10,524 bases of DNA, taken from a virus. Under the pieces are notes generated by a model. That model saw nothing but the letters and a program-made list of their open reading frames with translations. It had not been told where the DNA came from and made no database searches. The stretch lies in the UHGV virus genome UHGV-0053376. One strand, given 5' to 3'. The translations under genes were made by a program, and so were the position numbers. Positions 127 through 7,143 of the stretch are shown piece after piece. Every line of letters begins with the position of its first letter. Within the stretch, counting starts at the first letter, position 1.

Positions 127-333
127 CTTCATTTTCACTTTTTTAAATCCAACGACAGACGGCTGGCATTTAAGTATTGTGAAATATTATCAAATGTAAT
201 CATCATTGATTTACAAAAGATACATTTTGCCCCGAAAGGATTCATGTCAGAAACATCAAAAGATGATGTTCTATACTGGGAACCATGACAACACGGGCAT
301 CTAAAGTGAATATGGTTTGTAATATTGTCTACC

Positions 334-546
334 TCAAAGCGCCACTACATGAACAGCGGCAGGACCTTTAGGTCCGTTCTCAATACCAAATTCAACTTCC
401 TGATTCTCAGTTAATGTTTTGAAATCGTTGCTCTGAATTGCTGAGAAATGGACAAACACATCTTTGCTGCCATCTTTCGGCGTGATGAAACCAAAACCTT
501 TTTCAGGGTTAAACCATTTCACTAAACCAGTCATTTTGTTAGACAT
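334..546 (-). CDS. cspI: Cold-shock protein, CspA family (CspI-like), 70 aa
   Basis: Translation [38 protein letters not shown]... carries the RNP1 motif KGFGFI and RNP2 motif VFVHF of cold-shock domains. ATG at 546 with AAGG about 9 nt upstream. Sequence matches my recollection of E. coli CspI, and position next to Rz matches the Qin prophage layout. Confidence 0.85.
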
Positions 547-760
547 AATTATTACCTTTTGAAGAAATTAGCCCTTGGGCAGAATGGTCCGAAAAAAATA
601 TCAGAGAGAAAAACCAACAAGGAAATCTCAAGAGGTACAAATAATAAAATTATAACAATGACTGCTTCAGATAAATTTGTAACAAACCAGAACACCATTA
701 ACGCATGATTAACCACCCATAGCAAGGATTACTTTTGTAAAGAAAAACACAGCAATGAAA
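547..760 (-). promoter_or_regulatory. AT-rich leader and promoter region of the csp gene (long 5' UTR expected for CspA-family genes)
   Basis: About 360 bp of AT-rich non-coding sequence lies upstream of the csp start. CspA-family genes typically have leaders of roughly 150 nt. No promoter hexamers could be placed confidently. Confidence 0.25.
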
Positions 761-907: not shown

Positions 908-1935
<1,028 letters not shown>

Positions 1936-3707: not shown

Positions 3708-5696
3708 TTATGATGATGCCCGGCTTTCGTTAACTTTGACTGTGACCGTATCAAGCAGTACAGGATACGTCGCTTTTGCCCCCGTGATATCTGTCAGCGT
3801 CAGCGTATCTGCTGTAAAGCCATCATTTGTCCACATCACAAGGTCAAACGCCGTCTGCTCTGTACCATCAATCACCGGAACGACTCTTTCGCTGTTATTT
3901 CCCGCAAAGCGGAAAACAACTGTATGCCAGTTATGGTCAAATGCCCCAAATGTGCCCAGTTGCGCATTCGACTCCCCCTTGTGGTACATCAGATTCAGAT
4001 TTGATGCATCCGTCTGAAGGAAGAATGATGCCAGCATACTGTTTGCTGCCGCGCCTGACGCCCACTGCGACACCGGCCAGTAGAGACCAAAGACAAACTG
4101 TCCGTTCACCAGTTCGCTTCCATCCGGAATTTTGAACCGTACGGCAATTTCACCCCCCTTGCTGAGAAGATTTTTTGCCTCCTCCACCGCAACAGTACGG
4201 AACATCTTCCAGGAGGTCAGTTTACCCGGCTGTTTTTCCAGTCGCAGCGCCTTCCTGCCACTGTCATCCGTCACAGTGCCTTTACCACCGGACGCATTCC
4301 ACTGCTGCTCTGTCCATACACCATTTCCACTGTTCGCATCATATTCAGCCACCGTCCTGGTACTGCTCACGGCCTCATCATGACCAGTACCAGCAACACC
4401 GCCATCCTGCGGTTTCTCAACACCCGGTACCCCCGGACTGACATCATCACCGGGAGTTGTACCACCCGACTGCGGTGCGCTCTGCCCGGTAAGGAACGAT
4501 AATGTCCGCCCGGCGTACTGCAAAATGGCACCTGCCAGGCGGTCTGAAACAATGCCTCTTCGCGCCCAGGAGCTGAAGTGCGTTTTACGATCGGCTGACG
4601 TCCAGTTACTGGCAGTGCGTGACGCAGCGCCATAGTATCCCGCCGGGATAATGTCCGGATCTTCTGACGGCTCGTTTGTCGGCACATTCACACCATGCTC
4701 ATCCGTCATCAACGGCACAAAGTGAATATTCTGCGCCGCCTTGCCTTTATAGCCTCCGTAAACCGCCTCATACTGCACTGCATACTTCGCCTTCCAGTCG
4801 TACGTGGTGTCACCGCAAATCCACGGGACGCCGGACGTTGTCCCGCCAATACACTGGTCTGCAATATCTGCCAGGTCTGCACGGTATTTATTTACCATGG
4901 CAAGAAAAAGTGCATTGTGCTCTGCATGTCTCCCCGAACTGACATCTTTTTCCCCCTGCATCCAGATCACCGACAACAGCACGTTTTTCGGATTTTTCTT
5001 CAGGGCTGCACGCGTTCTGCTGACCAGGTCACGATACAACGGTTTATCCACCCCCCACAGGGAAGAGCCCGCTGTCGCACCCGACGCCTCATTAAACGCG
5101 CCCTCTGCTCCCGCAGTAAATCCCGAATCGCCACGTCCACACGGGACAAGAAGGATCCCCGCACGGGCAGGCATAAACGGCAGCAGTTTTTTGGCCACAT
5201 GCAGGGCATGCCCCACACAGCCATACTGCCCTTTATTGAGGTCTGCTTTCGGGTGATTCAGATTACTCACGTCCTGCACATCATGCAGACAATGGTCTGC
5301 AGGAATAATGTCGTTATATGCACAGGCCGCACCGCCCGGTGTCACCGTGCTGCGACGCGCCAGTTGCTTAATACGCGGGTCAGGACGATCATACGTATCC
5401 GGCAGCGGCAGCCCCTCGCCAAAAGACATCGAGTTGGACTGCCCGGCCAGCGCAATGACAAAGTAATATTCCGGTTCGCTGGTGGTGCTGATAACAGCGC
5501 CACCATCACCCGACGGTTGCACCACCACCGGTGTGGTGACATCACCTTCCGCCGCAATGGCCTGCATCAGGGTATAGGGCGTGATGGCCACCGGACTGCC
5601 AAATGGCTGCCCCCCCTCCTTCAGTTTTTGAGTCAGTCGCTCCGCAAGGTCTGACGGCGACGCCGCCCTGACCACATCGTAGTGTTTAAATGTCAT
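3708..5696 (-). CDS. nanS-p: Prophage sialate O-acetylesterase, NanS-p-like (SGNH/SASA-family esterase with C-terminal lectin-like domain), 662 aa
   Basis: Contains the GQSN(S)M catalytic-serine block (VIALAGQSNSMSFGEG) typical of sialate O-acetylesterase SGNH hydrolases. Strong SD GGGAGGA 5 nt upstream of the ATG at 5696. Position immediately upstream of the lysis cassette mirrors the large esterase ORF found downstream of stx in Stx prophages. Symbol is given on family and context grounds, not sequence identity. Confidence 0.75.
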   Translation of the reverse strand: MTFKHYDVVRAASPSDLAERLTQKLKEGGQPFGSPVAITPYTLMQAIAAEGDVTTPVVVQPSGDGGAVISTTSEPEYYFVIALAGQSNSMSFGEGLPLPDTYDRPDPRIKQLARRSTVTPGGAACAYNDIIPADHCLHDVQDVSNLNHPKADLNKGQYGCVGHALHVAKKLLPFMPARAGILLVPCGRGDSGFTAGAEGAFNEASGATAGSSLWGVDKPLYRDLVSRTRAALKKNPKNVLLSVIWMQGEKDVSSGRHAEHNALFLAMVNKYRADLADIADQCIGGTTSGVPWICGDTTYDWKAKYAVQYEAVYGGYKGKAAQNIHFVPLMTDEHGVNVPTNEPSEDPDIIPAGYYGAASRTASNWTSADRKTHFSSWARRGIVSDRLAGAILQYAGRTLSFLTGQSAPQSGGTTPGDDVSPGVPGVEKPQDGGVAGTGHDEAVSSTRTVAEYDANSGNGVWTEQQWNASGGKGTVTDDSGRKALRLEKQPGKLTSWKMFRTVAVEEAKNLLSKGGEIAVRFKIPDGSELVNGQFVFGLYWPVSQWASGAAANSMLASFFLQTDASNLNLMYHKGESNAQLGTFGAFDHNWHTVVFRFAGNNSERVVPVIDGTEQTAFDLVMWTNDGFTADTLTLTDITGAKATYPVLLDTVTVKVNESRASS

Positions 5697-5889
5697 GAAT
5701 CCTCCCGGTCGGGATAATGTTGTGAGTCAGATGAGGGGCGGGCTGAAGTCCGGAAGTTACAGGACAATGGCAGGAGGAAGACTACAGCCCGCAATACGAA
5801 AAAGGCCGCGCTATTGCGCAGAGTGATTACTGTCGGATATTATTCGCCAGCTGAAATATTACTTCACGTTTTGTTGTTTATTCCTTGCC

Positions 5890-5918
5890 GCCCGCGTCTC
5901 CCAGCGCGGGCTTTTTTT
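5890..5918 (+). terminator. Plus-strand intrinsic terminator
   Basis: Stem gcccgcg 5890-5896 / cgcgggc 5905-5911 (7 bp GC), 8-nt loop, followed by T7 (5912-5918). Confidence 0.45.
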
Positions 5919-5949
5919 GTCCATAAGAAAGCCCCTCCGGAGAGGGGCT
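5919..5949 (-). terminator. Minus-strand intrinsic terminator, back-to-back with the plus-strand one
   Basis: Stem gcccctc 5931-5937 / gaggggc 5942-5948 with tetraloop cgga. On the minus strand it is followed by UUUCUUAUGGAC (complement of 5919-5930). Confidence 0.45.
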
Positions 5950-6209
5950 GGAGAGTGGCGCTATGTGCCATTGCATGGTGCCGGGTGCCTCCCGGTGAGT
6001 TCAGCCCGGTGACACTAAACCCGCATATTCTCGCTTACGATCATCAAAGAGATCATACCGTTCACCAGTCGCCCCTCCGCACAGGGGGATTCACCATGCG
6101 AAATTTTTTTAACAAATGCTCAGCCTGACAGGCAACTGTCAACTTACTGAATTGTGAGGAATTTAACACTTCACAGCACAATATCTTTCCAGCGCCCCAA
6201 AATCATCAG

Positions 6210-6236
6210 GACAGGAGAAAATCTTCTCCCCCTGTC
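6210..6236 (-). terminator. Hairpin overlapping the lipoprotein stop codon (possible weak terminator)
   Basis: ggagaa 6214-6219 / ttctcc 6224-6229 inner stem, plus outer gaca / tgtc pairing. On the minus strand it is followed by CUGAUGAUUUUGGGG, a moderately U-rich tract. Confidence 0.3.
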
Positions 6237-6663
6237 AGAGTTTAAAATCCAGCACGCCATTTCTAAATGCTTTATATACTCCTGAAGACGGTGGTGATGG
6301 TATATCAGCATTCTTTACTGCATTCATCGCTTCACGACATAAATCGGGATCACCGCTTTCTCTTTTAACCTGTAGCAGAAGACCATTCGGGGCCATATAC
6401 ATTCTCAGTGAACACTCTTTTCCTGAATACTTACTCGCATCCTTTAACTGTTCTTCTATGGCTTTCCTGACCTGAATGGCATACTGCCTGATTTCTTCAC
6501 TGGCATCAGGGGTACGTTCCGATGAGCTCAAATTTTGCGACTTTATTAATTTATCTGAGTGATACAGAGAAGCATCATAATTATTTGTCGATACATCTTT
6601 TGTGCAGCCAGTTGTCAGACTGGCTAATATCAAAACAAGAACTGGTACAGCACGGCAATACAT
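6235..6663 (-). CDS. Outer-membrane lipoprotein with a TolA C-terminal (domain III)-like domain, 142 aa
   Basis: Signal peptide MYCRAVPVLVLILASLTTG-C with lipobox-like TTGC and Thr at +2. C-terminal 85 aa (IRQYAIQVRKAIEEQLKDASKYSGKECSLRMYMAPNGLLLQVKRESGDPDLCREAMNAVKNADIPSPPSSGVYKAFRNGVLDFKL) aligns with E. coli TolA domain III as I recall it (…YAGQIKSAIESKFYDASSYAGKTCTLRIKLAPDGMLLDIKPEGGDPALCQAALAAAKLAKIPKPPSQAVYEVFKNAPLDFKP), including both Cys. Good SD (GGAGATGG) and low GC relative to flanks. Confidence 0.8.
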   Translation of the reverse strand: MYCRAVPVLVLILASLTTGCTKDVSTNNYDASLYHSDKLIKSQNLSSSERTPDASEEIRQYAIQVRKAIEEQLKDASKYSGKECSLRMYMAPNGLLLQVKRESGDPDLCREAMNAVKNADIPSPPSSGVYKAFRNGVLDFKL

Positions 6664-6860
6664 TTATCCATCTCCATATTAACAAGAACAATTATCTATA
6701 AAATATAGTAAATATGCGGGATCCGGGAGGACTTGTAACTATCATCTCCGGATCAGCATGTAGTTTTTATTTTTCCGGATGATATATGCCGCAATAATAC
6801 CCCTGCATACAGATGCCTGCAAATATCTACGAAGCATCCGGCGAGAATAAACAAGGAAGT
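6664..6860 (-). promoter_or_regulatory. AT-rich upstream region of the lipoprotein gene containing repeated CCGGAT motifs (candidate promoter/operator)
   Basis: gatccgg 6720-6726 is inverted relative to ccggatc 6748-6754; tccggat repeats at 6774-6780; catccgg at 6835-6841 is inverted relative to ccggatg 6775-6781. The region is AT-rich with several TATA-like hexamers on the minus strand. Exact -35/-10 not assignable by eye. Confidence 0.3.
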
Positions 6861-6863
6861 CTG

Positions 6864-6885
6864 AGGCTATCTTATATGATAGCCT
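6864..6885 (-). terminator. Perfect 8-bp hairpin downstream of the tRNA genes (candidate tRNA-operon terminator)
   Basis: aggctatc 6864-6871 / gatagcct 6878-6885 with loop ttatat. On the minus strand it is followed by CAGACUUCCUUGUUUAUUCUC, moderately U-rich. Confidence 0.3.
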
Positions 6886-6941
6886 GTTGCTCAAAAGACA
6901 ATGATTCACTCATCAGAACCAACAACGCATAATGCAGATAA

Positions 6942-7018
6942 TGGACCGCCATCGAGGACTCGAACCCCGCGCAGCCAGCTTCGAAGGCTGGCGCTCTATC
7001 CCGATGAGCTAATGGCGG
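6942..7018 (-). tRNA. tRNA-Arg, anticodon UCG (would read CGA/CGG)
   Basis: Reverse complement folds as a cloverleaf: acceptor CCGCCAT / ATGGCGG, D-stem GCTC / GAGC with G18-G19 and A20, anticodon stem CCAGC / GCTGG with loop CTTCGAA (U33, anticodon UCG, A37), T-stem CGGGG / CCTCG with T-loop TTCGAGT, 3' CCA encoded. Begins with an unusual C1-G72 pair. Confidence 0.8.
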
Positions 7019-7027
7019 TATGTGATA

Positions 7028-7103
7028 TGGTGGCCCTTGCTGGATTTGAACCAGCGACCTGGCGATTATGAGTCGCTCGCTCTCACCACTGAGCTAAAGG
7101 GCC
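7028..7103 (-). tRNA. ileZ: tRNA-Ile2-like, anticodon CAU (lysidine type), ileZ-like
   Basis: Reverse complement GGCCCTTTAGCTCAGTGGTGAGAGCGAGCGACTCATAATCGCCAGGTCGCTGGTTCAAATCCAGCAAGGGCCACCA is 76 nt with CCA encoded and anticodon loop CUCAUAA. It is nearly identical to E. coli ileX as I recall it. Position between the Q-side genes and the cargo slot matches phage tRNA genes in Stx-like prophages. Confidence 0.85.
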
Positions 7104-7143
7104 GGGCATAGGATAATAACGGTACGTAACTAATTCTGCAATA

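Follow-up and report, generated by a model that had tools for sequence, protein, structure and literature searches.

A TolA domain III gene in the late region of a lambdoid prophage

We have analyzed a stretch of 10,524 nucleotides from a virus (UHGV virus genome UHGV-0053376; hereafter the window). It is the late region of a lambdoid prophage, read on the minus strand. At positions 6235–6663 on that strand there is an open reading frame (ORF) of 142 amino acids that begins with ATG, with the sequence GGAG 8 nt upstream. Sequence comparison and structure prediction support the assignment of its product as a lipid-anchored, stand-alone copy of domain III of TolA (TolA-III). The gene and its parts are as follows.

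6235–6663, minus strand: coding sequence of the 142-amino-acid TolA-III lipoprotein, with the stop codon at 6235–6237 (Pfam, phmmer, AlphaFold2 and Foldseek)
6604–6663, minus strand: signal peptide and lipobox, amino acids 1–20, LTTG-C20 (sequence inspection; the cysteine is kept in relatives)
6508–6603, minus strand: predicted disordered linker of about 32 residues, amino acids 21–52 (AlphaFold2 confidence below 50 for amino acids 1–50)
6238–6507, minus strand: TolA domain III, amino acids 53–142, with disulfide C84–C109, the ColA-box equivalent LLQVKR and the β3 sequence VLDFKL (Pfam, phmmer, Foldseek and residue mapping against PMC4339652)

The original prediction gave this protein a lipoprotein signal and a C-terminal domain about 50% identical to TolA-III, including both cysteines and the terminal LDFK. 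Each of these features was found. The signal peptide has an M-Y-C-R n-region with arginine at position 4, a hydrophobic segment AVPVLVLILASL (amino acids 5–16) and the lipobox L-T-T-G-C20, and presumably fits the PROSITE PS51257 rule. The lipobox cysteine is conserved in at least 90% of 32 diverse relatives, and aspartate occurs at the +2 position in none of the 32. By the +2 rule, the threonine at this position in the window protein predicts Lol sorting to the outer membrane.

The Pfam family TolA_C (PF06519) matches amino acids 52–140 with E = 5.7e-23 and 81.4 bits against a cut-off of 25, covering profile positions 7–96 of 96. A phmmer search of the PDB returned the Escherichia coli TolA-III entries 1s62, 3qdp, 2x9a and 1tol with E close to 1e-25 over amino acids 54–141. 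The domain is 51% identical to that of E. coli TolA. Cysteines C84 and C109 correspond to C363 and C388 of TolA and both are invariant in the 32 relatives, and the C-terminal VLDFKL aligns with PLDFKP of TolA so that L-D-F-K is kept. In the AlphaFold2 model the predicted local distance difference test (pLDDT) score is 80–92 for amino acids 52–141, with the helices and strands in the order found in TolA-III, while amino acids 1–50 are disordered (pLDDT < 50). A structural comparison with TolA-III had also been suggested, and a Foldseek search of the PDB with the model gave 2x9a_B as the best match (E = 1.8e-10, template modeling (TM) score on the target 0.87, root-mean-square deviation 1.9 Å), with all of the top seven matches being TolA-III.

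We considered whether the gene could encode a functional TolA, and rejected this. The protein has 142 amino acids compared with 421 for bona fide TolA, and domains I and II are absent; it therefore cannot be energized by TolQR. The full-length TolA model NF007065 gives a score of 103, below the cut-off of 213, and aligns at positions 297–386 of 387 only. TIGR02794 gives 75.9 against a cut-off of 59.45, but only its last 96 positions are covered. The neighbors of the gene are Q, a DNA methylase, tRNAs, nanS-p and lysis genes, and not a tolQ-tolR-tolA-tolB-pal operon.

The gene occupies the Shiga toxin locus

On the minus strand the gene order is DUF968, RusA, Q, an N6/N4 DNA methylase, tRNA-Met/Ile2, tRNA-Arg, the TolA-III ORF and a NanS-p-type SASA esterase. 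Past the esterase gene come a P21-type holin, a DUF1327 protein, lysozyme, Rz and a cold-shock gene. The features that define the locus are listed here.

8777–9598, minus strand: antiterminator Q, which drives the late operon containing the TolA-III gene (Pfam Antiterm, 5e-51)
7144–8202, minus strand: N6/N4 DNA methylase
6942–7103, minus strand: tRNA-Arg(TCG) and tRNA-Met/Ile2(CAT), forming the upstream boundary of the slot
6158–6920, no strand assigned: the whole cargo cassette that replaces tRNA-Arg, stx2A and stx2B (blastn breakpoints and the Stx2_95 annotation)
5919–6128, minus strand: STnc100 small RNA and terminator, directly downstream of the slot (Rfam RF02076, 177.7 bits, full-length; terminator-like site at 5949–5930)
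3708–5696, minus strand: NanS-p-type SASA esterase, the downstream neighbor as in Shiga toxin (Stx) phages (Pfam search and annotation)

It had been proposed that the gene lies where Stx phages carry stxAB, and comparison with related phages now places it exactly there. Megablast of 3708–8202 against phage genomes returned mostly Stx-converting phages, in which the flanks match and the middle does not. The homology with the Stx2a phage Stx2_95 extends through nanS-p to window position 6157 by blastn, and begins again at 6921 within tRNA-Arg. Between these breakpoints there are 763 bp (6158–6920) in the window and 1445 bp in Stx2_95, the latter comprising a third tRNA-Arg, stx2A and stx2B. Phage PhiR12_1 has the same downstream block, which ends at window position 6166, and no cargo before its Q gene. 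Since the same flanks enclose stx2AB, nothing or the TolA-III gene, the latter is an alternative cargo at exactly the Stx locus. A relative of the gene is encoded in only one of 50,697 phage records (that of mEp460), and thus the Stx phages of this collection lack it.

Some further features of the region were observed. The STnc100 sequence begins 106 nt past the stop codon of the TolA-III gene and ends in a hairpin and T-run; it is within the block common to Stx2a phages, and therefore follows stx2B in those. In mEp460 the same block is located upstream of the TolA-III gene (record L001, 5662–5837). A cspA-type thermoregulator leader was found at window positions 307–691 on the minus strand (Rfam RF01766, 114 bits), and a gene for a 70-amino-acid cold-shock protein at 334–546 is downstream of the Rz spanin gene, as it is in mEp460. 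A 90-amino-acid ORF with a lipobox-like LTSC sequence (958–1230, minus strand) is nested in another frame of the Rz gene, and presumably encodes the Rz1 o-spanin.

Composition of the cassette and the question of a promoter

The GC content is 0.39–0.42 across 6150–6900, compared with 0.50–0.60 in the flanks. The low GC content together with the presence or absence of the segment between the same flanks supports a moron-type, horizontally acquired cassette. Two features flank the gene within it.

6664–6920, minus strand: cassette-specific AT-rich upstream region, with the ribosome-binding site GGAG at 6672–6675, four CCGGAT motifs, hairpins and a weak σ70-like site
6210–6236, minus strand: 12-bp hairpin that overlaps the stop codon and continues past it (z = −3.7), without a clear T-run

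Four copies of CCGGAT lie within 6721–6841. The window as a whole has 13 against 4.3 expected, a number reached in none of 200 shuffled sequences. The cluster may form structure in a 5′ leader or be a protein-binding site. The allele of mEp460-type prophages lacks it upstream, and the cluster therefore looks specific to the window allele rather than a regulatory site of the whole family. The four CCGGAT/ATCCGG motifs have spacings of 27, 27 and 61 nt, with one strong hairpin at 6753–6721 (z = −3.8); the other upstream hairpin is at 6885–6864 (z = −4.1).

The lower GC content, the AT-rich upstream region with its CCGGAT repeats and the flanking hairpins are all as originally described. These had been taken to indicate an independently expressed moron. 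The composition and the hairpins agree with that description, but a promoter belonging to the gene does not emerge for the window allele, where the single σ70-like site (6823–6794, 9/12 matches) is no better than those in shuffled sequences. The mEp460-type allele has TTGAGC-18-TATAAT, a 10/12 match to the σ70 consensus that precedes the first ATG by 30 nt, and its two-gene cassette is followed by a terminator. Judged by its sequence, this commoner allele has the architecture of a moron.

Distribution, alleles and selection

The gene is neither rare nor unnoticed. By blastn the coding sequence is present in 897 of 5426 complete E. coli genomes. Among the carriers, 122 have an allele of the window group (≥95% identity) and 764 have one that is about 80% identical. 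In IMG/VR there are 125 contigs with a relative, from which 80 loci were fetched; all counts of loci given here refer to these 80. The ORF is intact with 142 codons in every one of the 80, and has the orientation of the late genes, with Q or the methylase on one side and nanS-p or the holin on the other. The ratio of nonsynonymous to synonymous substitution rates (dN/dS) between allele groups is 0.28–0.45 overall and 0.23–0.36 for the domain, and in some pairs of alleles the linker has the highest value of the three parts of the protein. One further allele (record L026, 6001–6426) has an N-terminal half identical to that of the window and a C-terminal part belonging to a group of 72% identity; this pattern points to recombination within the gene between groups of alleles.

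A search of 1.8 billion cluster representatives gave 303 matches. Of the best 150 of these, 71 are 100–170 amino acids in length, and about 50 of the 71 have a lipobox (by regular expression and inspection) that is never followed by aspartate. The source names of ten short relatives include Serratia, Kosakonia, Scandinavium, Klebsiella and Pseudescherichia. The Prokaryotic Genome Annotation Pipeline (PGAP) calls the protein 'cell envelope integrity protein TolA' (WP_000271631.1), which is a misleading name for lipoproteins of 120–150 amino acids and one that the databases have propagated. The domain family was already known. In the literature that we found, nothing describes the architecture of lipobox, linker and TolA-III, how it has spread on mobile elements or that it is allelic with stxAB; a cloacin-like plasmid has merely been remarked to carry 'TolA' (PMC10269471). 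We dropped a possible connection with the ciprofloxacin-induced 'TolA-type' gene EDL933_2012 (PMC11125564), which the supplement lists as a tail fiber protein and which could not be linked to the family.

Domain identity, fold, lipobox, conservation of the interface positions described below, purifying selection, the nature of the cassette and its distribution are thus established here.

Relatives on other mobile elements and associated TonB-domain genes

The family extends well beyond lambdoid phages. A tblastn search of plasmids found 1328 records with TolA-III relatives. Klebsiella IncF plasmids have a gene for a 144-amino-acid TolA-III lipoprotein directly after a gene for a periplasmic thioredoxin-fold protein. 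The leading region of pO157 and of other E. coli and Shigella IncF plasmids holds a divergent family member, which follows psiB, psiA and hok. A cloacin-like bacteriocin and its immunity and lysis genes are found on Klebsiella ColRNAI plasmids about 10 kb in size, and adjoining these is a gene for a TolA-III lipoprotein of 123 amino acids. A gene for a secreted TonB C-terminal domain (TonB-CTD) of 121 amino acids overlaps the latter by 4 nt, and the two form an apparent operon. In a Salmonella lambdoid prophage, a member with 41% identity likewise lies between Q and the holin. In E. coli G1/2 a prophage of the same type as that of the window also has a gene for a 108-amino-acid TonB-CTD lipoprotein near the terminase genes; no TonB-CTD lipoprotein gene was found within the 6-kb flanks of the fetched viral loci.

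A second TolA-III lipoprotein gene is located about 150 nt downstream of the first in 55 of the 80 loci, in the mEp460-type (group-B) prophages. That two such divergent lipoproteins are encoded in tandem suggests that they have diversified to meet different ligands.

The following details of individual loci were noted. The second paralogue has 131 amino acids, a VAGC lipobox, a Pfam TolA_C match of 1.3e-14 and about 25% identity to the first; it is at 6580–6975 in mEp460 (L001) and 6598–6969 in record L031. Nearly the same protein is the pO157 member (L008, 5947–6378). The TolA-III/TonB-CTD pair is at 3783–4516 in a 10-kb ColRNAI plasmid of Klebsiella (L007). The TonB-CTD lipoprotein of E. coli G1/2 (L002, 2251–2577, outside the range of the window) has an LVMGC lipobox and a Pfam TonB_C match of 1.3e-14. 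The genes for the Dsb-like thioredoxin-fold protein and the 144-amino-acid lipoprotein occupy 6406–7435 of a Klebsiella IncFIB plasmid (L005), where the former may be a dedicated oxidoreductase for the TolA-III disulfide.

Interface residues and a possible decoy function

The original prediction described TolA-III as a hub for TolB, Pal, colicins and phage g3p. Published work upholds this for TolB, ColN, ColA and the g3p N1 domain, while contact with Pal is disputed (PMC7391070). The g3p N1 domain, ColN and the N-terminus of TolB bind by β-strand addition to β3, and ColA binds on the other side, at β2 (PMC4339652). In TolA, the binding of ColN and g3p is lost in D418P and K420P, which also show a tol phenotype. 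Killing is weakened by Y340A, F412A and F419A and abolished by I344D and I348D, which disrupt the structure, and mutation of LLDIKP leads to ColA resistance (PMC4339652). The affinities are about 1 μM for ColN and g3p and 40–200 μM for TolB (PMC4339652; PMC7391070). The TolA residues Y340, I344, I348, F412, D418, F419 and K420 correspond to Y61, V65, I69, F133, D139, F140 and K141 in the prophage protein, all of them identical or conservative. The ColA box is LLDIKP in TolA and LLQVKR here.

In the reading that we favor, and to which we would give an even chance of being correct, the protein is a periplasmic decoy for TolA-binding epitopes, tethered to the outer membrane and providing tolerance to group A colicins and exclusion of Ff phages. 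We infer the localization, binding, phenotype and timing of expression that this entails. The flexible linker of about 32 residues would place a folded, disulfide-bonded TolA-III just beneath the outer membrane, and probably let it reach both the sites at which the translocation domains of colicins emerge and the location of TolB-Pal. There the domain would capture the TolA-binding epitopes of group A colicins of the ColN and ColA types by β-strand addition to β3 and β2, and would also capture the g3p N1 domain of filamentous phages and probably the N-terminus of TolB. As the protein would have no coupling to TolQR or the proton-motive force without domains I and II, captured ligands would not be imported. 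A lysogen should then tolerate Tol-dependent bacteriocins and exclude Ff-type phages, at the cost of some weakening of Tol-Pal. Given the difference in affinity between ColN or g3p and TolB, such a decoy could trap invaders preferentially. Colicin tolerance resulting from periplasmic TolAIII was reportedly seen by Levengood-Freyermuth in 1993.

Several observations weigh against a decoy. The α1 helix, which contacts g3p, is only about 40% identical to that of TolA, and binding to ligands specific to E. coli is therefore not assured. The gene belongs to the late operon under Q control and comes shortly before the lysis genes, and with no convincing promoter in the window allele (its 9/12 site being at the level of shuffled sequence) the protein is possibly made mainly in lytic growth, when colicin tolerance would be of little use. 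Titration of TolB would destabilize the envelope of the lysogen. PADLOC has no model that matches the TolA-III lipoprotein. Full-text literature searches found no functional study and no paper on the family, and PHROGs assigns the protein to phrog_5772, 'unknown function', in keeping with the original statement that no function had been characterized.

Alternative explanations

The main rival reading is that the protein serves release of the phage by sabotage of Tol-Pal. A TolA-III tethered at the outer membrane, and made from the late transcript along with holin, endolysin and spanin, would compete with TolA for the N-terminus of TolB and leave TolB on Pal. The resulting loosening and vesiculation of the outer membrane would make lysis, or the release of phage and of other cargo from the periplasm or outer membrane, quicker or more thorough. 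The location of the gene agrees with this: in the Salmonella prophage and all 80 viral loci it points the same way as the late operon and lies between Q and the holin. This is the position of stx, whose release depends on late transcription and lysis, and the window allele has no convincing promoter of its own. Moreover, overproduction of TolAIII targeted to the periplasm causes E. coli to leak periplasmic protein (Wan & Baneyx, as used in PMC6195910). Yet the commoner allele has its 10/12 promoter match 30 nt before the ATG and a terminator after the two genes, the phage already has a full lysis set of holin, lysozyme and Rz-type spanin, and the affinity of TolA for TolB is weak (PMC7391070). 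The homologues on IncF and other non-lytic plasmids, the TonB C-terminal-domain genes found paired with the family and the tandem, diversified copies of the commoner prophage type lead us to prefer a decoy over a role in lysis; TonB domains do not loosen the outer membrane, and by analogy copies of both energy-transducer heads make sense as import blockers and not as aids to lysis. We regard a role in release as unlikely. It is not mutually exclusive with a decoy, and titration of TolB would also block the TolB-dependent colicins E2–E9.

The Stx cargo slot invites comparison with virulence. Bor and Lom of λ are lysogenic-conversion factors, and a predicted outer-membrane lipoprotein like Bor, occupying this slot and frequent in human and animal isolates of E. 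coli, could act on the animal host, for example in resistance to serum or antimicrobial peptides, with the TolA fold as a mere scaffold. We think this improbable, because across very diverse members the TolA functional positions, the disulfide and the C-terminal β3 are conserved, relatives occur in plant and soil genera (Kosakonia and Serratia) and on bacteriocin plasmids, and surface exposure is not predicted. A captured host tolA that has lost its function, or a mis-annotated fragment of one, might be suggested by the PGAP name TolA and by truncated or frameshifted members in the databases (the 157-amino-acid forms). However, the gene has acquired a lipoprotein signal, belongs to a broad Enterobacterales family with the same architecture and is intact in all 80 viral loci, with the dN/dS of 0.23–0.36 in the domain; with only 51% identity to E. 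coli TolA it is not a recent fragment. On the intact ORFs and a dN/dS of about 0.3 we rejected a decaying fragment, and consider any form of this explanation highly improbable. Both a virulence lipoprotein and a decaying fragment are much less likely than sabotage of Tol-Pal or a decoy.

Significance

If the decoy reading is true, about 16% of sequenced E. coli (897/5426) have a prophage gene that alters their sensitivity to Tol-dependent colicins and filamentous phages. This would have a bearing on bacteriocin-based therapeutics, phage-display hosts and competition in the gut, and would provide a natural counterpart to a 30-year-old laboratory observation on periplasmic TolAIII. Taken with the TonB-CTD genes, it would amount to a general way for mobile elements to defend the cells that carry them. 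We tentatively extend the proposal, with somewhat less than an even chance in our estimation, to lambdoid prophages of the Enterobacterales and to IncF and bacteriocin plasmids. These would make wide use of stand-alone, envelope-targeted copies of the ligand-binding heads of the two energy transducers, TolA-III and TonB-CTD. Such copies would form an unrecognized class of 'import-decoy' immunity directed at bacteriocins and phages, found in roughly one E. coli genome in six and exchangeable for Shiga toxin at a single phage locus. The cassette also reveals the cargo that takes the place of the toxin in non-toxigenic relatives of Stx phages.

Comparison with known systems

The prophage protein shares with domain III of E. 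coli TolA (1S62, 3QDP, 1TOL and 2X9A) the fold (TM 0.87), the disulfide, the LDFK of β3 and a similar ColA box at β2. It differs in that a lipoprotein signal and a short disordered linker replace the transmembrane domain I and helical domain II, and in that its gene is in a prophage late operon and not in the tol-pal operon. In being a stand-alone periplasmic TolA-III uncoupled from the motor it resembles engineered periplasmic TolAIII (Levengood-Freyermuth 1993; Wan & Baneyx 1998). The engineered domain is made in the laboratory, soluble and identical to that of the host, whereas the prophage protein is natural, predicted to be lipid-anchored, diverged and encoded on a mobile element.

There are parallels among phage-encoded lipoproteins that exclude invaders, and Llp and Cor bind and plug the receptor FhuA. 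The TolA-III lipoprotein would act otherwise, as a copy of a periplasmic co-receptor of the host that titrates the invader or TolB. Llp of T5 and Cor of φ80, N15 and mEp167 are of the same kind in being small, phage-encoded, periplasm-facing outer-membrane lipoproteins that block an entry route of phages and colicins (see also bioRxiv 10.64898/2026.03.26.714494). We saw no sequence relationship of the TolA-III lipoprotein to Llp or Cor, and the protein falls in PHROG 5772. Another likeness is to phage FimU (PMC12952977), which is likewise a prophage-borne, diverged copy of a host component that invaders need, used in defense. There the system is the type IV pilus of a different organism and the mechanism has been demonstrated; here it would be Tol-Pal, with a mechanism that we infer. 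Finally, the stxAB cargo has the same insertion point, the same flanks (methylase, tRNAs, cargo, STnc100, nanS-p and lysis genes) and the same late operon downstream of Q, but its products are unrelated to the TolA-III lipoprotein.

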